IMG/VR virus record: IMGVR_UViG_648276653_000011
Coordinates: 1-23,506 of that record
Source of the DNA: a virus
Taxonomy: Duplodnaviria; Heunggongvirae; Uroviricota; Caudoviricetes
DNA length: 23,506 nt
Strand: one strand, 5' to 3'
Below the pieces are notes generated by a model. The model saw only the letters and a list, made by a program, of their open reading frames with translations, was not told where the DNA came from and made no database searches. Numbering within the stretch: the stretch's first letter is position 1; each line of letters begins with the position of its first letter. Of this stretch, positions 2,675 through 22,930 are shown in pieces. The position numbers and the translations under genes are program-made.

Positions 2675-3315
2675 TTGTCGGTATACCTCTCTCGTTTGCT
2701 CAGTTGTTCAGGAATATGGTGCAGCAGCTCGCCGTCACCACAGTAAATGGCGGCATGATTCGTCACCGATGAACCAAAACAGCACAGCAGCACATCGCCC
2801 GGCTGCGCCGCTGACAACGGCACCTGATACAGCCCTGTGGCCTCCAGATTATCCAGATAGAGATTCTGACCGTGACGCCACCAGTCATCCTCGCGATGAA
2901 AATCCGGCATCTCAATCCCCGCCAGATGGTAAGCATCCCGGAACAGCGTGTAACAGTCCGTCACCCCGTGCTCAAAGCGCCGCCCGGTAAGATGTGGCAC
3001 ACAGCGGAACTTGTGAATCGCCCCCCGGCAGACCAGCCACCACGGCAAATCACTCTGCACCTGCAGCCGCCTGTCGGCCTCACTCAGCCAGGGCAGACCA
3101 CCGGGGTGGCTGTGGACCAGCGCCACAATCTCACCCTGCATTTCTGCCTGCAGCCAGTCTTCCGGCGACATACGGAAATACGCCTCCGGCTCACCGGAAA
3201 TATTCACGCAGGGAAAATATCTTTCCCCCTCCGGCGCTCTCACCACGAAGCCGCACGACTCCGCTGGCGCACATCGCCGGGCGTGCGCCAGAATCGCTGA
3301 TTCTGTCTCTGTCAT
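2572..3315 (-). CDS. K: Tail tip assembly protein K (JAB/MPN metalloprotease-like plus NlpC/P60-like domains)
   Basis: Internal ATG at 3315 gives MTETESAILAHARRCAPAESCGF...; JAMM-like motif HSHPGGLPWLSEAD and NlpC/P60-like Cys context GVTDCYTLF visible; the track ORF 2572..3390 is an upstream in-frame extension that would overlap L. Confidence 0.85.
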   Translation of the reverse strand: MTETESAILAHARRCAPAESCGFVVRAPEGERYFPCVNISGEPEAYFRMSPEDWLQAEMQGEIVALVHSHPGGLPWLSEADRRLQVQSDLPWWLVCRGAIHKFRCVPHLTGRRFEHGVTDCYTLFRDAYHLAGIEMPDFHREDDWWRHGQNLYLDNLEATGLYQVPLSAAQPGDVLLCCFGSSVTNHAAIYCGDGELLHHIPEQLSKRERYTDKWQRRTHSLWRHRAWHASAFTGIYNDLVAASTFV

Positions 3316-3319
3316 GGGA

Positions 3320-4018
3320 TTACTGCGAAAGTTTGTTAATGGAAAGGAAGCCGCCAAAGTTGCCGACGTTATTGCGAAACTTACAGCCACTCAGGCATTT
3401 GCTGCATTTATCCTTCGTGATATCGGACGTCGGCTGGTCATATTCATCCGCGACAGCCGGACCGTGATAACCGCACTCATCACCGCGATAGGTCCAGGTG
3501 CAGGTATTAGCCAGCATGATACGTCCCGGAAAAACGGCACCATCCGTTTCCGTCGGTGTGGAGAGCACAAAGGAGGCACTGACCGCGCTCAGTTCGCTGC
3601 ACTGCTCGATGCGCCAGCGGCTGATCACCTCCTGCTCCGGATCGGCTTCACTGTTTCCGTTGACGAAGTTCACCGCATCCAGAAAACGGGCGTAAACCTT
3701 ACGCCTGACCACCGTTCCGCCGACCAGACTCTGCAGGTCTTCCGCCATACCGGTGACCATGCCGTGCAGGTTAGATACCTTAAGTGTGGGACGTGCGCTG
3801 CTGCCCTTACCGTTCATCTCAAAGCCGCTCCCCTGAATGGGATACTCCTGATACTGCCTCCCCTGCCAGGTAACCGGCTCACCTTTTTCGTTCTGCTCAT
3901 TACAGAAAAAATAACGTTCACCACCGACCTCTGTCAGATCGATTTCCCAGAGCACGACCAGCGCGGATTGCTCCGATTTAGTGCACTCATTGAGTGTTTC
4001 CTGCTGTATATCCTGCAT
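3320..4018 (-). CDS. L: Minor tail protein L
   Basis: 232-aa ORF MQDIQQETLNECTKSEQSALVVLWEIDLTEVGGERYFFCNEQNEKGEPVTWQGRQYQ... lambda gpL-like; ATG at 4018 overlaps the M stop (TGATG). Confidence 0.9.
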   Translation of the reverse strand: MQDIQQETLNECTKSEQSALVVLWEIDLTEVGGERYFFCNEQNEKGEPVTWQGRQYQEYPIQGSGFEMNGKGSSARPTLKVSNLHGMVTGMAEDLQSLVGGTVVRRKVYARFLDAVNFVNGNSEADPEQEVISRWRIEQCSELSAVSASFVLSTPTETDGAVFPGRIMLANTCTWTYRGDECGYHGPAVADEYDQPTSDITKDKCSKCLSGCKFRNNVGNFGGFLSINKLSQ

Positions 4019-4359
4019 CAGTGAGTGACCTCTTCAAAGGTACAGTTAAAATCGGTATACATGGCATTATCCGAAATACTCCACTCCCTGCAGACAACCC
4101 GGACGGTCCTGTTATATTTTGGCGGACGCCACAAAAAAGCACGCATCCCGGCATGACGGGATAAAAAACTGTCCAGCGCGGCACGGGAATATTCATCCGT
4201 GACACGAAATACCGGTTTAAACGTTTTCAGATCTGCATTCAGACCACCAGCCCGTCGCTGTTCATATCCGTCACCAAACTTTACCGTAATAACTGATGGC
4301 TTTCGTGTCGTCTCCATCCCCTCACGGGGGATCCAGTTAAAAACTTCAGGCTCAGGCAC
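4018..4359 (-). CDS. M: Minor tail protein M
   Basis: ...VITVKFGDGYEQRRAGGLNADLKTF... parallels recalled lambda gpM ...VRKVRFGDGYSQRAPAGLNANLKTY...; preferred start is GTG at 4359 with GGAGGA 7 nt upstream; alternative starts ATG 4374 or TTG 4404. Confidence 0.8.
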   Translation of the reverse strand: MPEPEVFNWIPREGMETTRKPSVITVKFGDGYEQRRAGGLNADLKTFKPVFRVTDEYSRAALDSFLSRHAGMRAFLWRPPKYNRTVRVVCREWSISDNAMYTDFNCTFEEVTH

Positions 4360-7300
4360 TGTACAATCCTCCATCCCGACGCGATGACTGCATAATTGAC
4401 ACAACCCTGCTGTCGATCAGATCCACCAGTCCCCTGGCTGAGCGCGCATCTATCTCGCCATTGCTCCCTTGATTCTGAATGCTGATGTGATACACGGGAG
4501 AATAAACCAACCCCCCCGCCACTATTCACATTGCCAATGGCTCTGACCCCAAGAGAGCCGTCCGCTGCCCGTGTCAGTGGCATGATAGCTTCAGGCCCGG
4601 CCTCGCCCATCAGCCCGGCGCCTTTCGCAAAAGCAAAATACGTCGGTGTATCCACAATAGTGTTACTGTAAGCACTCAGATTTGCCGATGTGTAAACACC
4701 ACCTTTTGCGTTTGCCACCGCCCCCGAAATCCATCCGCCGACCGTACCAAGCCACCATCCGGCACCGGAGAGTGACTTCAGTCCGTTAACAATGGCCGCA
4801 TTCATCAGAATTTTTGAAACTTCCTGGAGAATTGAACTCCCCCAGTTTCTCCAGTCCACAACATTTCCGGCCAGTGCATCGGAAATATTTGATACCAGCC
4901 CGTCCATAGTGGAAACGACAGCATCTGCCGCCTGCGAAGCATAATCGGTGGCACTGTCTGCCCAGTTGGTCAGCCCCTCCTGGAGTCCTGCATTCCAGTT
5001 ATTACGTAAAGCATCGGCCTTTGCATAATAATCCTGCTGATCGCTGAGACGCTCTTCCAGATATTTTTTATTCAGTTCTTTCTCCTGTTTCCACAGGGCT
5101 TCTTCAATTTCTCCGGCCTGATACTGTCTCAGCAGCTCGTTATTTTTCTGCTCAAACTCATGCCGGATACTCCACATTTCCTGGAGTCGTTCGCGCATCC
5201 GTGAGCCTTCACCATATCCCAGTAACTGCGCGTCGTTAGACGCCCGGGTACTGGCATTACTGTCCGCCAGGCTGCTTTCATACGCAGCAAGCTGCTCACG
5301 AATCTTTTTCTGGTCGATGAGTGCTGCATTCTGCAAAAGCGTTTTTTTCTGCGCTTCTGACAGGGTTGATAATTCGCCCTGACTGACCTGATATTTCATC
5401 TTAGCCAGTTCAGTATTCTGCCCTGCCAGTGCTATCTGTTCTTTTTGCTGTTTAATCAGCCGTTTATAAATATCTTCTGTTTTTTCCGCTTCGGTCTTTT
5501 TATGCGCTTTGGGTTTATTTGCCTGGTTATTTCGCCAGGCATCCAGTGAGTTATTGATATAATTCTGTCTGGCTGTCTGATACGCCTCTCCCACAAAGCC
5601 AAGATCATCCGCAGCATAGCCCAGTCGAGCACGCTCACGCGCTTCCCCCTTAAGGCGGGACAGAGCCAGTTCGCGCTTGCTGTTATTCAGTGCGGTCTGC
5701 TGTTTATCATCCAGGGTTGTCTGTGGTAGCCGTAACGGTACATTCACCAGCCCCTGTCGCTGCTGAAGTAATTCATTACCAAGCCCAAGAAGGCGATTAA
5801 ACTCGGTATGCTGCCCATTCATGATCAACAGGGACTGATACGCTTTGTTTTGTTCCGCCGCCTGTTGACGGATCAACGCAACCCGCCGCTCCTCCAGCCC
5901 GGCAAGCACATCCTGAATGGATTGCGCTTTGCCCTGCATTTGTGTGAGACGGGACTGTTCAACTGCCAGTTGATTTGTTGCTTCTGCAAGCCCTTCTGTG
6001 ACTGTTTTTACCGACGTCATGTGGTTAATCATAAAACCGTTATCGGTTGTCCAGCCCGGGTTTGCCAGCACATACTGATAGCCAGCAATTTTTTCCTGTA
6101 AGGATTTAATCTTACTTTTCTGCTCGTCAATTAACCTGTTTTGCTCATCAAGTGCCTGCCGCGTCTTTTCCTCATTATCTGACGCTTCAGGAAGCGACAT
6201 TGCCGACGTTTTCTGGCGAATTTCGTCGATTGTTGCGGCATACTGGCGTGCAGATTCTCTGGCCTGCTCCTGATTCTGATACATCGTGTACCAGGCCGTC
6301 GCCCCCAGCATGACGAGTCCCGGCACACCACCAACCAGCCCTAGCGCACCACTTAACAGACGACTCCCCACTGACGTGACAGTATTCAGCGTTGTCTGCG
6401 CCGCTGTTCTGGCCGCAATATTACGGGTAAGTGACGCCTGAGCAGCTGTCAGCTTCGCTTCTGCTGCGGCCTGCCTTTCGGTACCGCGAGCAGCAACAAC
6501 CGCCTGTTGCGCACGATAAACCGCCGCACGCGCCCTGGCGGTTGCTATCTGTGTCCCCCGAAGTTGCGCTTCAGCAAGAGCCACTTCGTTTCTGGCTGCA
6601 GTAATTAATCCGGCAGTTGCAGATCCAGCAGACGACGCCATATTGCCAAAATATCGGGCTACCCCGACGGCAACCAGTGCGCCAGCTGCAGCAGCCACGG
6701 TATCAATATTGTCTGCAACACCATTCAGCACACCGGAGAGTGTCTTTGTCACTCCGCTTGCCTCGTTCGCACCACCAACCCAGGCCATAAAGGCGTTTTC
6801 AACTTTGGTTGCAGAGGATGAAACAGTATCAGGCATTGCTGCATATTCATCACGCAACGCCCCAAGCTGACTAATCAGTGCAGGAACAACCTTATCGGCG
6901 GTCAGTTTTCCGTTATCCGCCATGGCCTTCAGATCCTTACGGGCAACCCCCATTCCCGCAGCCAGCGCACGAATAACACGATCGCCGTTCTCATTCACCG
7001 AGTTAAACTCTTCACCGCGCAGCACTCCCTGCGCCAGTGCCTGACTGAACTGCATGATCACCGAACTGGCTTCTGCTGTACTGGCACCGGATAATTTCAG
7101 GCCCGTGGAGATCGCCTCGGTGACTTTCAGTACCTCCTCAGAACTGTAACCATACTCCCGCATGGAAGCTGCAGAACGGGCAAAAAGGCTGGCGTTATCA
7201 GAAAACGCCGTCCCCGTTCTCTGGCTGATCGCCATTAATTCACGCTGTGATGCCTGAAAATCATCACTGGACTGTGAGGCCTGCTTCAGACGGGCATTTA

Positions 7301-17647: not shown

Positions 17648-18130
17648 TTATCTGAGACATTGCTCACGAATGTATAGCTGTGCCCCTTCCAGTTGCTTCT
17701 GCATCGTCATCAACCGTTCTCTGAGGGTGAAATAATCCCGTTCAGCGGTGTCTGCCAGTCTGGGGCTGGTTGCATTATCCACGCTGGTGGGTCCGGTGGC
17801 TTCACGCACGGCTGCGGAGCAACTGGCATTGACCCGCAGGCGCTTACGACCAGCGGCAACATCAGCGCGCAGAGTTTCATTTTCAGCTTTCGCATTGGCT
17901 AATTCTCTCGAGTACTTTGCATCGAGCGCAGCAACATCACGCTGACGCTGCTGCATGTCAGCGATGGTGGCGGTCAGCTGCTTCAGCTCACTGACTTTTT
18001 TATCACGCTGTTCTTTGTAGGTGATGGCGTTATCACGGTAATGATTGACCGCCCACGACAGGCAGACGATGATGCAGATAACCAGAGCATAAATAATCGC
18101 GGCGACTCTGCTCACTGATCTATTCCCCAA
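17648..18130 (-). CDS. Rz: Rz i-spanin
   Basis: 160-aa ORF with N-terminal TM segment and ...[23 protein letters not shown]...[10 protein letters not shown]...[15 protein letters not shown]...TMQKQLEG... matching recalled lambda Rz. Confidence 0.9.
17710..17895 (-). CDS. Rz1: Rz1 o-spanin lipoprotein, embedded in the +1 frame of Rz
   Basis: 61-aa [25 protein letters not shown]...[32 protein letters not shown]; lipobox LVVSAC and Pro-rich body, matching recalled lambda Rz1; wholly within Rz. Confidence 0.85.
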
Positions 18131-18645
18131 CAGGCTAATGCGCTTTCTTGGTCACGACGAATAACCTGTCCATAGCAGTTATTTGAACGTATGCGGCAAT
18201 CGCGCCCACCATCTTTTATCCACCAGCGAATCGCCTCGCATGCGCCCTTACGATCACCAGCATTCAGCCGCTTATAAAACGTCGATGGAAAACACTTACC
18301 GGGGCCAATGTTATAGGGACAAAATGACGCGATACCCGCTTTTTGTGGTTCGGTCAGTGGTACTTTAATATTGCGCTCCACCCATGCCAGCGCCTTATCA
18401 CGCTCAATGGCGTTGACCTGGTCGCATTTTTCCTTCGACAGTTTCATATTGGGAAAAACGGTTTTTCCATCCACCACTGTGGCACCCCGACAGATGGTCC
18501 ATATGCCAGAACCATCGCGGTATGCCATTGTGTGGTTACCTTCTTTTTCGTCCAGAAACTGGTCAAGTATCTGAGGAGCAGATGCGCCAGCACCAATCAG
18601 CGCCAGAACGGCAGCCGACAGGCCGTATCTGATTTTTGTGTTCAT
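18112..18645 (-). CDS. SAR endolysin (phage lysozyme with N-terminal signal-anchor-release domain)
   Basis: 177-aa ORF; N-terminal Gly/Ala-rich weakly hydrophobic [23 protein letters not shown]; catalytic E-x8-D-x5-T pattern ([16 protein letters not shown]) as in phage 21 R; upstream of Rz. Confidence 0.85.
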
Positions 18646-18953
18646 ATATATTTATGATGAGGACGCTCGTGCTTATTGGCAGGATTTTCAATCTTAAAGG
18701 AGTACTGATGCTGCAGATAAGACTCAACTTTTTCTGACAATTTTTCTGCTACTTCCAGGAAGACTTGCCGGACGCTCCTTCTGGCTGCTGCCTCATAAAA
18801 CTCCAGCGCAGCTCCTTCAACACGGTCCATGGCGACATCCAGGTCAAAAATTTCACCGTCAAAGCGTTCTTTGTCCTGTAATGCTAAAGTTACCGTAACT
18901 TTATTCTCAAAATTGCGGATCCCTTTCACAATCAGTTCATAGTTTTGAGTCAT
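18642..18953 (-). CDS. DUF1327-like protein between holin and endolysin (YdfR-like, tentative)
   Basis: 103-aa ORF MTQNYELIVKGIRNFENKVTVTLALQDKERFDGEIFDLDVAMDRVEGAALEFYEAAARR...; same size and position as the gene between the holin and lysozyme in Qin-type prophages (recalled). Confidence 0.6.
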   Translation of the reverse strand: MTQNYELIVKGIRNFENKVTVTLALQDKERFDGEIFDLDVAMDRVEGAALEFYEAAARRSVRQVFLEVAEKLSEKVESYLQHQYSFKIENPANKHERPHHKYI

Positions 18954-18957
18954 TGAA

Positions 18958-19173
18958 TTACTCTCCTCTCGCAGCCTTACGCCTGTCTTCTTTAATCTTG
19001 AAATAAAGATTTGTCAGATACGTCAGCAGGCCAAAAACCAGGCTACCCAGCACACCGATTGCAGCCCACTGTGACGGAGTTACTTTATCGAGTAACTGCA
19101 ATGCCCAGAAACCAGCATTACCCGCCGATGTGCCATAGGCAACACCTGTTGTTAACTTATCCATTGATTTCAT
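18958..19173 (-). CDS. Class II (S21-type) pinholin with dual-start motif
   Basis: From the internal ATG: [71 protein letters not shown] (71 aa), very similar to recalled phage 21 S; Met1/Met4 dual start; the track ORF 18958..19248 is an upstream extension. Confidence 0.8.
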
Positions 19174-19392: not shown

Positions 19393-19563
19393 ATGTCAGA
19401 ACGTAAAGACTCAAAATCACGCCGTAATTATCTCGTTAAATGCTCCTGCCCAAACTGCACCCAAGAGTCAGAACACAGTTTTTCAAGAGTACAAAAAGGT
19501 GCCCTTTTGATCTGCCCTCATTGCAACAAAATATTCCAGACAAATCTTAAAGCTGTAGCCTGA
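19393..19563 (+). CDS. Small zinc-ribbon protein (56 aa from ATG; hypothetical)
   Basis: MSERKDSKSRRNYLVKCSCPNCTQESEHSFSRVQKGALLICPHCNKIFQTNLKAVA with CxxC...CxxC pairs; AGGAAAAG RBS; AT-rich; the track ORF starts further upstream at 19342. Confidence 0.4.
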   Translation: MSERKDSKSRRNYLVKCSCPNCTQESEHSFSRVQKGALLICPHCNKIFQTNLKAVA

Positions 19564-19622
19564 TTGATTTTATTAGTAACAAGTATTTTTTATATTTTAA
19601 TAATATATTTAAAGCAGATAAT

Positions 19623-19650
19623 AAAAAACCCGCCTGAGCGGGTTTGAGAT
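19623..19650 (-). terminator. Intrinsic terminator (AAACCCGC-TCAG-GCGGGTTT plus T-run), possibly bidirectional
   Basis: Perfect 8-bp GC-rich inverted repeat; on the minus strand followed by TTTTTTATTAT; ~280 nt downstream of cspB and ~60 nt downstream of the plus-strand zinc-ribbon ORF. Confidence 0.5.
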
Positions 19651-19925
19651 TGTGGTGCTTTTTGTGGGAGTCATCCACTTACGCACTTTGTTTTGCCATG
19701 CCAGCAGTTAGCTTCTGCTGTAAAACTATTCATGCAGCAAACCTGCACTTCACCACAATGGTTAGCATACTTTTCCTGATTAAGGTTTTGCCAAATATGC
19801 TGGCCATTGTTTCATGTATTGGACCTCCTTATTTTTATTAAAGAGATCCAATATTCACTACTCTGTCCGTATCTCTACTCAGGCATCAGCCTTCTTCGTT
19901 ATCGTATACAGACGAGCGATGAATT

Positions 19926-20141
19926 TTAATCAGTAATGATGACATTTGCTGCTGCAGGACCTTTAGCACCACTCTCTATAGAGAAGGTAACCTTTTGACC
20001 TTCAAATAAGGTTCGATAATTATCATTCTGAATCGCAGAAAAATGCACAAACACATCTTTACTACCATCAACAGGAGAAATAAAGCCGAAACCTTTATCA
20101 GCGTTAAACCATTTTACTAAACCAGTCATTTTATTTGACAT
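19926..20141 (-). CDS. cspB: Cold shock protein CspB-like (CspA family)
   Basis: 71-aa [74 protein letters not shown]; canonical RNP motifs KGFGFI and VFVHF; TAAGGAAT RBS. Confidence 0.9.
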
Positions 20142-20441
20142 TCTACATTCCTTAACTTGAGCCTTTCGGCATAAATGGTTTGCATAACAGAAACGACTTC
20201 GTACTTAATTGGAGAGACTCAAAGAAGGAATAAGTGAATAACACCTGAAATGAGAACTGCTTTAGTAAACTACTTCGTATATCGTCTGTTCTTCAAACCG
20301 ACGCAATCATTAACGCATAGTTGAACATATGAAGCAATGTTTATTTTAGACATCCAGCCATCTTCAACCCCATCAAAAAACTATAGCTTTCTTCAGGAAC
20401 GTGTGTATAGTGCGCCAAGTTATCAGTATTAAGGAATTTTT

Positions 20442-20654
20442 TTGTCCCGTAAAATGACAGGAATTGTCAAAACCTTTGACGGCAAAAGCGGCAAGGGTCT
20501 TATCACCCCATCCGATGGTCGTATCGATGTCCAGCTTCATGTTTCAGCGCTCAATCTCCGCGATGCAGAAGAAATTACCACCGGATTACGCGTGGAATTT
20601 TGCCGGATAAATGGTCTGCGTGGCCCTTCAGCTGCCAATGTTTACCTTTCATGA
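20442..20654 (+). CDS. cspF: Cold shock-like protein CspF/CspH family
   Basis: 70-aa [73 protein letters not shown]; apparent TTG start with AAGGAA 5 nt upstream; divergent from cspB. Confidence 0.85.
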
Positions 20655-20708
20655 GCTATATTAAAGCTTTAATTTCAGGCCCCATCGGATCACACATGGA
20701 GAGTTTTT

Positions 20709-20798
20709 ATGAATAACCCCGTCTGTCTTGATGACTGGATGATTGGCTTTAAAAGCTTATGCTGTACTTTGGCCGTAATAGCTCTGCTAATAATATAA
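20709..20798 (+). CDS. Candidate 29-aa hydrophobic peptide ORF downstream of cspF (speculative)
   Basis: GGAGAG-TTTTT-ATG context; manual translation [29 protein letters not shown] with hydrophobic C-terminal half; below the track's size cut-off. Confidence 0.2.
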
Positions 20799-20946
20799 TA
20801 AGCAGACTCATTGTGTTTAGGGACATTGTACTGGAAGAAAACATTTTAAACATCAGGCAAATAACCAAGTCACCAGCTAAATAATAAGTTAACAGACATG
20901 AGTCCCGGGATGAGATTCAACATTACCATTGCCCCATTTAAAGCAC

Positions 20947-20980
20947 AAAACCCGCTCATCAGCGGGTTTTCTACTTTTTC
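20947..20980 (-). terminator. Candidate tR' late terminator (10-bp stem AAAACCCGCT/AGCGGGTTTT), potentially bidirectional
   Basis: Inverted repeat read directly, followed by TTTTGTGCTTT on the minus strand and CTACTTTTTC on the plus strand; ~60 nt downstream of the putative pR' start. Confidence 0.5.
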
Positions 20981-21009
20981 TTAACGTCGGGTATACAAAG
21001 CCCATCGTT

Positions 21010-21050
21010 GAAAAAATTTTATCCATATTTTTTGAAAAATGCAAACATCA
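21010..21050 (-). promoter_or_regulatory. Candidate late promoter pR' (-35 TTGCAT, 17-bp spacer, -10 TAAAAT) just downstream of Q; expected Q-utilisation region
   Basis: Minus strand reads TTGCAT-ttttcaaaaaatatgga-TAAAAT (plus coordinates 21039..21044 and 21016..21021); position after Q matches the lambdoid pR'/qut arrangement. Confidence 0.45.
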
Positions 21051-21075
21051 TGTCGCCATCTTCAGCAAAAATCAT

Positions 21076-21828
21076 TTATCTCGTCACCTTCCTCAATTGC
21101 GCTTCCGCGTATGCTTCTTCCTGCCAGCACTTTGTTACCAGTTTACCAATGACGTCCGCATACCCCTTATACCACTGATAATCGGTCAGGTCTGGTACCA
21201 GCTTCTGGACATGACGTCGTGCCAGCGTGGTCGGTAAACGACTAAACCGGTTTCCATTACAACGCCCACAAATCTTATATACCGGTACGCCATGAAACCG
21301 GGTTCTTTTTTCATCCAGAACAATCCCTTTACCCTTACACCCTCTGCACGCTGTGCTGACTTCGCCCTTACCATGGCAATGCTGACATAGTTCCTTCACC
21401 CATTCTTCCTTGATTACAGATTCCCCGCGTCTGTAGTGTTTCACCACTTCGCGCAATACATTATAAAATCCCGTACCTGAACAATGCTCACAGCGAGCCT
21501 TACTTGCCGCAGACCTGGAGTAATCAGCAAAGGCAAAACTCACGAGGTAAGGAATAATCTGTAACCGGATTTCTTCACTCAATTTGTTCAATGTCGGGTT
21601 ATCCAGTGCCATCGCGTAATTTAGCAGGCCTTCAATCGCAAACTGAGGGTCCTGAACACCAACTTTTGCCAGAAATAAGGCCAACCCAAGTGGTGCTTTC
21701 GACTGCACCATCCCCTGCGCTGCCATTACATCCGTAATTGTTAAACAACCGGTGCCTGTCGCTGGAGCGTCATCGCTCAATTTTGGAGATTTTGGGGAGT
21801 AATATTTTGGTAAGGCTTCAAGGTTCAT
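21076..21828 (-). CDS. Late-gene antitermination protein Q
   Basis: ATG at 21828 with GGAG 7 nt upstream gives MNLEALPKYYSPKSPKLSDDAPATGTGCLTITDVMAAQGMVQSKAPLG...; Cys-rich C-terminal cluster (CEHCSGTG...CQHCHGKG...CRGCKGKG...CGRCNG) suggesting Zn binding; position before the late promoter and lysis genes. Confidence 0.8.
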   Translation of the reverse strand: MNLEALPKYYSPKSPKLSDDAPATGTGCLTITDVMAAQGMVQSKAPLGLALFLAKVGVQDPQFAIEGLLNYAMALDNPTLNKLSEEIRLQIIPYLVSFAFADYSRSAASKARCEHCSGTGFYNVLREVVKHYRRGESVIKEEWVKELCQHCHGKGEVSTACRGCKGKGIVLDEKRTRFHGVPVYKICGRCNGNRFSRLPTTLARRHVQKLVPDLTDYQWYKGYADVIGKLVTKCWQEEAYAEAQLRKVTR

Positions 21829-21841
21829 GCTCGTTCTCCAC

Positions 21842-22930
21842 TTACGCCAGTACGCCAATTGCCAGCGCGCGATCGATAAAACGAAATATCAGCTCCAGTT
21901 GGGAGCCATACTTCTCTTCAAATGCCACTGTATCCGTATGCAGCTCGTTGTGATGCTTTCTGCACAAAGGCAACACAAAGAGATCATGTGCTTTTGTTCC
22001 CATTCCGCCCTGCCCGTGACCAATCAGATGATGCGGATCGTCGGCTGGCATACCGCAGCAAGCACACGGCTGTGTCTTAACCCAACGTGTGTATTTCTCC
22101 TTAACCCAGCGGCGACGTTTAGGCAGCTTCATGAAAGATTCCGGAGACTCTGGATCAACGGTGATGCTTACCACCGTCTTTTCCTGTGGTGGTTTTTGTT
22201 GCTGGTAGGCGTAAGGCAACGGTGCAAGATTTTTTGTGCGTTGTTTCAATATGCTGGTGGCGGTCTGCTCTCCCGGTACGATGTCGCTTTCGCGGTACAC
22301 CGAGCAGATTTTTTCCGCTGGTAATCCCAGCGAACGACGCGATACAGCCTCAGGTAGTGCATCCACCACCTGATTGCAGACCGCCCACCAGGATAATTCA
22401 GCCAAAGATAATTCCCGCTCCTGCGTACCGCTTATTGCGTGACGGATGACGTCAATCACCCATGCTGTCAGATTTTGTTGAGCAAGCAGATCCAGTGATT
22501 CCGATGTCTGGTCACGCAGTTGGTTGTCGCAGTGCCAACACAACACCATTGCGCCGGTACCATAACGGTGAATGACTGTTTCAGAGTGATGGTAATCGCC
22601 ATTAGGCCACTGGCAGGATGTAACATGACGTAATAGCCAGTCAGACAATGCGCCAACGCCGCCAGCAGCACGAATCACCCGTTCGTTACTAAAAAACGGC
22701 AGCAATGTTTTGTCTTCCACCAGCGGCTGGCGAACGGCAGGAACGACTCCGGATGGCAGATTACGCATGCTTTTTGGTTCCGGTTCCACCAGCACTCGAG
22801 GATTATGAAATATCTGTATGGATTCACGGCCCGGCTTAAGGACCACCAGCCCAAGCTCAGGCACCAGAACAGGTCTAAGTAATACCCGCACGTTACCTCC
22901 AGATCCGTTGCTGGAAAGTGCGGGACGCAC
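21842..22930 (-). CDS. DUF968-like protein (YdfU-like; start uncertain)
   Basis: C-terminal ...CACCGMPADDPHHLIGHGQGGMGTKAHDLFVLPLCRKHHNELH... recalled as the DUF968 signature; sits immediately upstream of Q as in Qin-type prophages; annotated start is GTG at 22930, overlapping the upstream 92-aa ORF; internal ATG at ~22768 is an alternative. Confidence 0.6.
   Translation of the reverse strand: MRPALSSNGSGGNVRVLLRPVLVPELGLVVLKPGRESIQIFHNPRVLVEPEPKSMRNLPSGVVPAVRQPLVEDKTLLPFFSNERVIRAAGGVGALSDWLLRHVTSCQWPNGDYHHSETVIHRYGTGAMVLCWHCDNQLRDQTSESLDLLAQQNLTAWVIDVIRHAISGTQERELSLAELSWWAVCNQVVDALPEAVSRRSLGLPAEKICSVYRESDIVPGEQTATSILKQRTKNLAPLPYAYQQQKPPQEKTVVSITVDPESPESFMKLPKRRRWVKEKYTRWVKTQPCACCGMPADDPHHLIGHGQGGMGTKAHDLFVLPLCRKHHNELHTDTVAFEEKYGSQLELIFRFIDRALAIGVLA

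Follow-up and report, generated by a model that had tools for sequence, protein, structure and literature searches.

A probable lambda-type late-gene control cassette beside the Q antiterminator gene of the Escherichia coli Qin prophage

The unannotated DNA that follows the antiterminator gene ydfT (quuQ) of the Qin prophage is, with a probability that we put at about 0.9, the late-gene control cassette of Qin, built like the pR'-qut-tR' region of phage lambda. We analysed IMG/VR virus record IMGVR_UViG_648276653_000011 from position 1 to 23,506 (the window, 23,506 nucleotides), in which the cassette lies on the minus strand. In the mechanism that we propose, a sigma-70 promoter, TTGCAT-17-TAAAAT, would initiate transcription at about A21009. 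Sigma-70, still retained by the polymerase, would then re-read the AACGAT of AACGATGGG as a -10 element and hold the complex at about +13 to +17. Without Q, the polymerase would escape from this pause, halt at an intrinsic terminator with its hairpin at +40 to +63, and release a 67-nt RNA ending at 20943. QuuQ, if present, is expected to bind the promoter spacer and load onto the paused polymerase, and the QuuQ-loaded polymerase may then transcribe past this terminator and those beyond it into essQ-ydfR-rrrQ-rzpQ. The features of the locus are as follows.

21076..21828, minus strand: Q antiterminator gene ydfT/quuQ, 250 aa; open reading frame from ATG, with the TAA stop at 21078-21076
21044-21039, minus strand: -35 hexamer TTGCAT, a weak match, at -35..-30 relative to A21009
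21022..21038, minus strand: 17-nt spacer TTTTCAAAAAATATGGA, candidate Q-binding element placed by comparison with lambda
21016..21021, minus strand: -10 hexamer TAAAAT, at -12..-7
21009, minus strand: predicted transcription start +1 (A), from the register with lambda pR' and the P22 late-RNA 5' end
21001..21009, minus strand: pause element AACGATGGG, comprising a -10-like AACGAT (+1..+6) and then GGG (+7..+9); identical to lambda
20992..21000, minus strand: T-rich segment CTTTGTATA, the expected pause site, at +10..+18
20983..21009, minus strand: possible 5'-terminal hairpin, +1..+9 paired with +19..+27; minimum-energy fold and RNAalifold consensus
20947..20970, minus strand: tR'-like intrinsic terminator, 10-bp stem AAAACCCGCU / GAUG loop / AGCGGGUUUU, at +40..+63
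20943..21009, minus strand: predicted 67-nt terminated leader RNA; 3' end from Term-seq, 5' end predicted
18112..19173, minus strand: late-operon lysis genes (holin gene essQ, ydfR and lysozyme gene rrrQ); open reading frames, Pfam and K-12 annotation

Results

Locus and gene order

Over 301 bases around the site, the sequence matches the Qin prophage of E. coli K-12 MG1655, a cryptic prophage in NC_000913.3, at 100% identity; in this part of the window, the window coordinate equals the record coordinate minus 1621413. Of the 5426 complete E. coli genomes searched, 1814 contain a matching stretch, and the sole annotation under it is ydfT, described in NC_000913.3 as a putative antitermination protein Q. 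Gene order in that record runs ydfU, ydfT, an unannotated gap, ynfS and cspF (on the opposite strand), cspB, ynfU and essQ-ydfR-rrrQ-rzpQ. The lysis genes lie on the same strand as the cassette, about 1.8 kb downstream of tR', and this interval is filled with accessory genes that include the oppositely oriented cspF. Pfam matches to Phage_holin_2_1 and Phage_lysozyme were obtained, and the cold-shock proteins were also confirmed. No prior description of a Qin late promoter was found in the literature on ydfT, quuQ, essQ or Qin. The cassette as read here is an unannotated instance of the known, textbook lambda-type late-control arrangement.

An earlier note, made from the sequence alone, had placed a Q stop codon, a TTGCAT-17-TAAAAT promoter and a 10-bp-stem terminator with flanking U-tracts in this region, and we recovered every one of these elements on the minus strand at the coordinates it gave. 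Its central proposal, that a pR'-like promoter and a tR'-like terminator bracket a short leader after Q in the lambdoid manner, is supported by the sequence, by comparison with relatives and by an in vivo 3' end.

Predicted promoter and start

Taken in isolation, the promoter hexamers are unremarkable. The -35 hexamer, which lies 32 nt beyond the Q stop, agrees with TTGACA at only 3 of 6 positions. A consensus scan of positions 19500-22500 returned 8 promoter-like sites against 5.5 +/- 2.1 expected, which is no enrichment; this promoter scored 9/12 in the scan, where it was parsed as TTTGCA-18-TAAAAT. The hexamer match by itself is not above chance. One might accordingly argue that the hexamers are a chance match and that the hairpin downstream serves some other purpose, since such matches are no commoner here than in shuffled sequence. 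Against a chance promoter stands the exact lambda pause element, located in exact register after the -10 hexamer. AACGATGGG begins six nucleotides past that hexamer, the same distance as in lambda (TAAATT-TGACTC-AACGATGGG in lambda, TAAAAT-TTTTTC-AACGATGGG in Qin, in which TTTTTC forms the separating segment). Across the window, there is a single match to the composite TANNNT-N6-AACGATGGG, with 0.08 expected.

Because the exact lambda pause element is found in lambda's register, we predict +1 at A21009, NC_000913.3 1642422(-), which places the hexamers at their canonical positions of -35..-30 and -12..-7. The start near 21008 suggested in the earlier note is within 1 nt of this homology-based position. 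A start site was sought in the supplements of Cappable-seq, SMRT-Cappable-seq, Conway 2014, Kim 2012 and the Nanopore paper, and none was found there. Activity of the predicted sigma-70 late promoter is supported indirectly by a dominant in vivo 3' end downstream of it, described below.

Pause element and expected pause site

In lambda, the sigma-dependent pause element combines a -10-like AACGAT at +1..+6 with GGG at +7..+9, and the polymerase pauses at +16/+17 (PMC5001585, PMC9191641). The identical element occupies +1..+9 in Qin and is nearly invariant among the relatives. The earlier note had overlooked it.

At pauses of this kind, a G/C-rich segment gives way to an A/T-rich one (PMC5001585). 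The GGGC block, together with T13, T15 and T17, which are invariant across relatives, agrees with such a pattern. The pause-site consensus is T-N-Y-G, about 14-17 nt from +1 (PMC9191641), which lambda carries at +14..+17 and to which the TATG found at +15..+18 in most relatives also conforms. The K-12 copy has an A at +18, and T-N-Y-G is found there only as TTTG at +11..+14. A phage-82-like extended -10 pause element in TTTGTATAC was considered and rejected, as the TG spacing is wrong and TANNNT is missing.

Two further departures from lambda are minor: a second zinc ribbon in Q, described below, and the lack of a -35-like site. Sigma region 4 moves, in lambda, to a -35-like TTGACT directly upstream of the pause element and there contacts the tip of the Q arm (PMC9388147). 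This site is absent next to the Qin pause element, where the corresponding hexamer is TTTTTT (2/6). At -7/-8, scores of 5-6/6 for a -35-like site were seen only in lambda, P22 and HK97 (TTGACT or TTGACA in the latter two), while every locus with a long-armed Q scored 2-4/6. Since lambda, P22 and HK97 are closely related here, their -35-like site counts as one evolutionary observation and not as three; the element was described for lambda itself, and we did not take it as defining the family.

Terminator and predicted leader RNA

The leader folds strongly. A 76-nt leader sequence has a folding energy of -30.5 kcal/mol (z = -6.5), and 0 of 200 shuffles were as stable. GUGCUUU lies directly 3' of the hairpin and provides a U-rich tail. 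Consistent with termination at this hairpin, the Term-seq study of Adams et al. 2021 lists a curated dominant 3' end at NC_000913.3 1642356(-) in wild-type, uninduced MG1655 (PMC7815308). It corresponds to the C of GGGUUUUGUGC at window 20943, 8 nt past the hairpin's GC core, as one would expect of an intrinsic terminator. The authors' table for LB OD 0.4, LB OD 2.0 and M63 holds three entries for it, two of them with scores of 103591 and 55368 (PMC7815308). The earlier note had put the leader at about 60 nt; the short length holds, and the figure becomes 67 nt when counted from the predicted +1 to the Term-seq 3' end.

The same 3' end bears on the simplest alternative, namely that the hairpin is merely the 3' terminator of ydfT, or a two-way terminator shared with cspF-ynfS, next to chance promoter hexamers. 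That the Term-seq authors classed the end as 'orphan' (PMC7815308) would suit a ydfT terminator, and the hairpin is likewise picked up as a terminator when the + strand is scored. However, the Term-seq listing has no + strand 3' end at the hairpin (PMC7815308), the equivalent elements of P22 are annotated PR' and tR', and Q genes are accompanied by the full promoter-to-terminator layout regardless of which genes follow downstream. Together with the register of the pause element, these points make this alternative very unlikely, and we retain the late-control cassette as our reading.

We also examined whether the transcript itself could have a function. The 5' end of the leader may form a hairpin. 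Across 25 distinct QuuQ-clade sequences, 98.5% of cells in the pairing are paired, compared with 27-52% in slid controls, and the changes, seen in 7 of the 8 pairs, affect a single side (G-C to G-U, U-G to U-A). Outside this group, +1..+5 can pair with YGUU near +20..+27 in lambda, P22, mEp237, YeP1 and others, and SE1 and Erw59 show AACA/UGUU at this hairpin. No double compensatory changes were found within the QuuQ clade, column-letter shuffles do equally well, and per-sequence tests are not significant. The 5' hairpin is therefore best called suggestive, and a conserved DNA motif (CGTT) is a possible explanation of the same columns.

Such a hairpin could protect the 5' end of an RNA that also acts in trans as a small RNA in the lysogen, an idea compatible with the late-control cassette. 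It gains from the presence of the 3' end among curated dominant ends in uninduced K-12 (PMC7815308), and from the precedents of StxS (PMC7547250) and IsrK (PMC4825925). Even so, we consider a trans-acting role unlikely. The 3' tail UUUUGUGC offers a short U run; relatives vary most in the segment +28..+39, which separates the 5' hairpin from the terminator; and the conserved segment +10..+18 is accounted for by the requirements of pausing. All Rfam families, moreover, stayed below threshold, with isrK at 16.6 bits against a gathering score of 50 through a terminator-derived match. Over the cassette region as a whole, nothing reached its gathering threshold, the best scores being 16-22 bits against thresholds of 37-124.4 (37-55 for isrK/isrJ and the leader families). 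We rejected the isrK, isrJ and amino-acid-leader matches, at 14-22 bits, as evidence of homology because they are driven by the terminator stem. Elsewhere in the window, the sole Rfam match is a cspA-type thermoregulator in the cspB leader.

A peptide-dependent attenuator, with a short reading frame starting at the AUG inside AACGAUGGG, is another conceivable use of such a leader. This AUG lies at +4, a 51-aa open reading frame is called at 20889-21044, the aligned region of one phage record carries a 'hypothetical protein' annotation, and there are weak Rfam matches to the Phe, Trp and Leu leaders. These matches are far below threshold and based on the terminator stem. The TTG start of the called frame is upstream of the predicted +1, and the AUG at +4 would have a 3-nt leader and no Shine-Dalgarno sequence. 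We reject a leader peptide because the reading frame is not conserved: lambda reads M-G-stop, and a relative (L013) has 7 codons. The probability of an attenuator is, in our estimate, negligible.

Conservation among relatives

Scans with the QuuQ protein yielded 80 viral contigs and 17 genome loci, the latter with Q identities of 40-100%. The genera represented among the genome loci are Escherichia, Shigella, Mangrovibacter, Kosakonia, Phytobacter, Atlantibacter, Scandinavium, Buttiauxella and Entomohabitans. About 40 distinct variants, with Q identities of 40-100% and from several genera, keep the layout, with the terminator ending at +50 to +68. From 31 distinct variants of the segment -45..+32 we derived the consensus TTGCA..TTCAAAAA..TGG.TAagaT-N6-AAcGATGGGCtTTgTaTg, or more fully cTTGCAtTtTTCAAAAAa.aTGG.TAagaT-N6-AAcGATGGGCtTTgTaTgtCt..CGTT. 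TTGCA of the -35 hexamer is kept in at least 90% of QuuQ-clade variants, and relatives have TAAGAT or TAGGAT in place of TAAAAT.

A scripted search found a GC-rich hairpin followed by a U tract ending at +50 to +68 in all variants but three. The exceptions were lambda, in which the terminator lies beyond the 100 nt scanned, and two loci (L083 and L094) in which a similar hairpin and T-run can be seen by eye, outside the perfect-stem criterion of the script. The stems themselves differ (ACCCGCU/AGCGGGU, ACCUCGC/GCGGGGU, CCCGCC/GGCGGG).

The direct relatives are SfV, Ayreon, mEp460, 2H10 and Stx2c-converting phages, whose Q proteins are 90-95% identical to QuuQ and whose DNA is 83-91% identical to Qin from the 3' end of Q to the terminator. 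They have TAAGAT as -10 and keep T-N-Y-G at +15..+18. Annotation in these phages covers the terminator, labelled putative rho-independent in SfV and Ayreon, and neither the promoter nor the pause element. Most matches in the phage collection break off at the foot of the terminator, at query position 204-211 (window 20947-20940). The downstream genes of the direct relatives differ from those of Qin, as expected from an end of similarity at this point, and the layout from promoter to terminator is kept beside the Q gene whatever follows. Q, promoter and terminator thus travel as one mosaic module. Given the composite motif, the fold of the leader, the conserved layout in about 40 variants and the Term-seq 3' end, we conclude that the site stands above chance.

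Q protein and leader length

QuuQ matches the Pfam family PF03589 'Antiterm' with E = 3.5e-54, and the same model is matched by lambda Q and P22 gp23. PF03589 corresponds to Q-lambda, PF06530 to Q21 and PF06323 to Q82 (PMC9388147). In the Pfam search QuuQ matched neither PF06323 nor PF06530, and in the PDB search it left the Q21 structures unmatched. It did match the Q-lambda structure 7UBM over the full length (phmmer, E = 4.7e-36), with the N-terminal region and the C-terminal body aligned; the N-terminal region of this match corresponds to the lambda Q nozzle. The alignment places an insertion of about 43 aa in QuuQ at the start of the lambda 'arm', and there are four CxxCxGxG motifs in QuuQ versus two in lambda Q. 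QuuQ also matches Pfam DnaJ_CXXCXGXG (E = 8.4e-9). From the PF03589 and 7UBM matches and the insertion, QuuQ is, as judged by sequence, a long-armed member of the Q-lambda family with a second zinc ribbon at about residues 121-159, and of neither the Q82 nor the Q21 type.

The earlier note had taken the short leader as a sign of a different Q specificity class. Under such a reading, Q would be of the Q82 or Q21 type, with its own pause position and binding-site layout. The predicted leader is shorter, 67 nt versus the 194 nt of the lambda leader (6S RNA), and the spacer is unlike that of lambda at 6 of 17 positions. Nevertheless, the family assignment of QuuQ contradicts it, as does the pause element: AACGAT and GGG lie at +1..+9 as in lambda, whereas the element of phage 82 is near +9..+17 with a pause at +25 (PMC5001585). 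Phages 82 and 21 follow the same logic as that proposed for Qin, in which a Q gene is combined with a late promoter, sigma-dependent pausing and a terminator; their Q proteins belong to the unrelated families PF06323 and PF06530 (PMC9388147).

Leader length itself offers no help to that reading. P22 (gene 23) and HK97 pair a lambda-like Q of 207 aa, with one zinc ribbon, with leaders of about 60 nt and a terminator at about +31..+59, and so leader length is uninformative on Q class. For a broader comparison of leader length we fetched twelve further phage loci of the Q-lambda family. Short leaders (50-70 nt) were present in 11 of the 13 phage loci, a small sample in which lambda and SF6 are the exceptions; Kp5LV, mEp237, SPN3UB and YeP1 have leaders of 50-75 nt, and QuuQ-clade variants have a short leader throughout. 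Judging from these sequences, it is the 194-nt leader of lambda that is unusual. We regard a different Q class as extremely unlikely, and the inference from leader length is not supported.

Candidate Q-binding spacer

A narrower difference in specificity is plausible. The Q-binding element of lambda, which lies in the promoter spacer, is a 13-bp site contacted by the Q body and arm (PMC9388147). The Qin spacer is identical to that of lambda at 11 of 17 positions. Within the QuuQ clade, TTCAAAAA..TGG is conserved; a clade comprising mEp237 and two of our loci (L019 and L021) has TTTCC(G/C)GAATCTGTG; and lambda, P22 and HK97 share TTGAATAAA.TTGGG, with the spacer TTTTGAATAAAGTTGGG of P22 and HK97 nearly that of lambda. 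The spacer is therefore constant inside a Q clade and changes between clades, a pattern that fits a Q-binding site. In this narrow sense, through divergence of the spacer, QuuQ may have a binding specificity different from that of lambda Q.

Discussion

The Qin cassette shares its organization with lambda: a PF03589-family Q gene lies immediately upstream, the promoter has the same geometry (-35, 17 nt, -10), and an intrinsic terminator stands ahead of the lysis genes. P22 provides an annotated counterpart, as its record marks PR', qut and tR' and puts the 'probable 5' terminus of late RNA' on the A that opens AACGAT, the position at which we predict the Qin start. Unlike Qin, P22 and HK97 have a lambda-type spacer. 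Several features count against our reading: the weak -35 hexamer amid unenriched promoter-like matches, the absent -35-like site, the K-12 departure from T-N-Y-G at +15..+18, and, in a cryptic prophage, the roughly 1.8 kb of accessory genes ahead of the lysis genes.

Short constitutive RNAs made from a promoter just 3' of a Q-like gene and ended by a terminator are also known from Stx1/Stx2a phages (StxS) and Salmonella Gifsy-1 (IsrK). StxS is processed from a 258-nt precursor (PMC7547250). These RNAs are without sequence or structure homology to the Qin RNA, and we regard them as functional analogues, not as homologues.

A bolder version of our reading holds that the Qin/SfV type is a mechanistically distinct sub-type of the Q-lambda system, and that the 67-nt leader with its 5' hairpin is an unannotated constitutive small RNA of K-12, possibly with a role of its own. 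The tandem, four-CxxC, DnaJ-like zinc-ribbon arm and the missing -35-like site suggest that Q may load with a different geometry. As one example of such a geometry, the second zinc ribbon could replace the contact between sigma region 4 and DNA. We hold this version only tentatively and think it rather doubtful as a whole. A double-zinc-ribbon Q at a promoter that has no -35-like site would nonetheless be a natural variant for testing the need for sigma-region-4 repositioning.

These results give a probable function to intergenic DNA that is unannotated in E. coli K-12, the best-studied bacterial genome. Under our reading, the 'orphan' Term-seq 3' end at NC_000913.3 1642356(-) would mark where transcripts from the Qin late promoter stop at tR'. 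They also correct a tempting rule of thumb, in that leader length is no guide to Q class. The cassette is present as well in Stx2c-converting phages, with a Q about 94% identical to QuuQ; toxin expression in those phages is expected to depend on late transcription.

Q protein and the region downstream of its gene

QuuQ carries four CxxCxGxG motifs, which together resemble the two-zinc module of DnaJ, against two in lambda Q. All relatives of 250-276 aa share an insertion, ~43-65 residues long, where the arm begins; lambda Q lacks it. The features of the Q gene, promoter and leader considered here are:

21076-21828, minus strand: Q gene, with the extra CxxCxGxG region at about residues 121-159 of its product
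21053-21068, minus strand: small inverted repeat downstream of the Q stop, ahead of the -35 hexamer
21031-21038, minus strand: TTTTTCAA in the promoter spacer
21008-21015, minus strand: second copy of TTTTTCAA, overlapping the predicted +1
20889-21044, minus strand: 51-aa ORF with a TTG start, overlapping promoter and leader

The inverted repeat after the Q stop is TCGCC-GAAGAT-GGCGA in SfV and TTGCCA-CGGA-TGGCAA in lambda, whereas the K-12 version is degenerate (TTGCT-GAAGAT-GGCGA). The repeat search (repeat I2) found TTTTTCAA twice; the second copy is only approximate in relatives (TTTTC.CAAC), and the duplication may be a chance occurrence in A/T-rich DNA. Among the loci compared, only lambda, P22 and HK97 (comparison loci L003, L111 and L112) have a -35-like site (TTGACT/TTGACA) immediately 5' of the pause element; it is absent from all compared loci with a long-armed Q, including Qin (21010-21015, minus strand).

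The phage record PhiR42_1 has a 'hypothetical protein' annotated beneath the region aligned to promoter and leader. In the window, the 51-aa ORF is probably a false gene call, because its start lies upstream of the predicted +1 and its frame is not conserved.

Sequence beyond the terminator

In one condition, Term-seq lists a further 3' end on the minus strand, NC_000913.3 1642188 (window 20775, near 20760-20800). This end lies 168 nt past tR', 3' of a CTGCT..AGCAG hairpin, and ynfS is antisense to the RNA ending there. It could reflect either tR' read-through or a separate RNA. Farther downstream, within the late transcription unit, an Rfam match to the cspA thermoregulator (19910-20302, minus strand; 158.8 bits) spans the long 5' UTR of cspB. 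The offset between window and NC_000913.3 shifts by 1, from 1621412 at ynfU to 1621413 at cspB, so the window carries a 1-bp indel relative to MG1655 somewhere in 19563-19926.

A mosaic joint at the terminator

At the nucleotide level, the match to SfV, mEp460, Ayreon, Stx2c phages and others breaks off where the terminator hairpin ends on its 3' side, a mosaic joint at window 20947, and the cargo 3' of the terminator is different in each phage compared. At the Mangrovibacter plantisponsor locus (L014, 1881-3700), a different terminator directly follows the Q gene, and the block of promoter, pause element and terminator lies ~1.8 kb farther downstream; this displacement may represent an insertion or a second prophage.

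The Stx2c-converting phage LC727877.1 (L114; region examined, 3001-6400) has the same Q (94% protein identity), promoter, pause element and terminator as Qin. After its terminator come a lipoprotein-like ORF, a 352-aa ORF that we judged by eye from its sequence to be methylase-like, tRNA-Met and tRNA-Arg. In Stx2c phages, therefore, it is a Q of this type that stands at the start of the late region.
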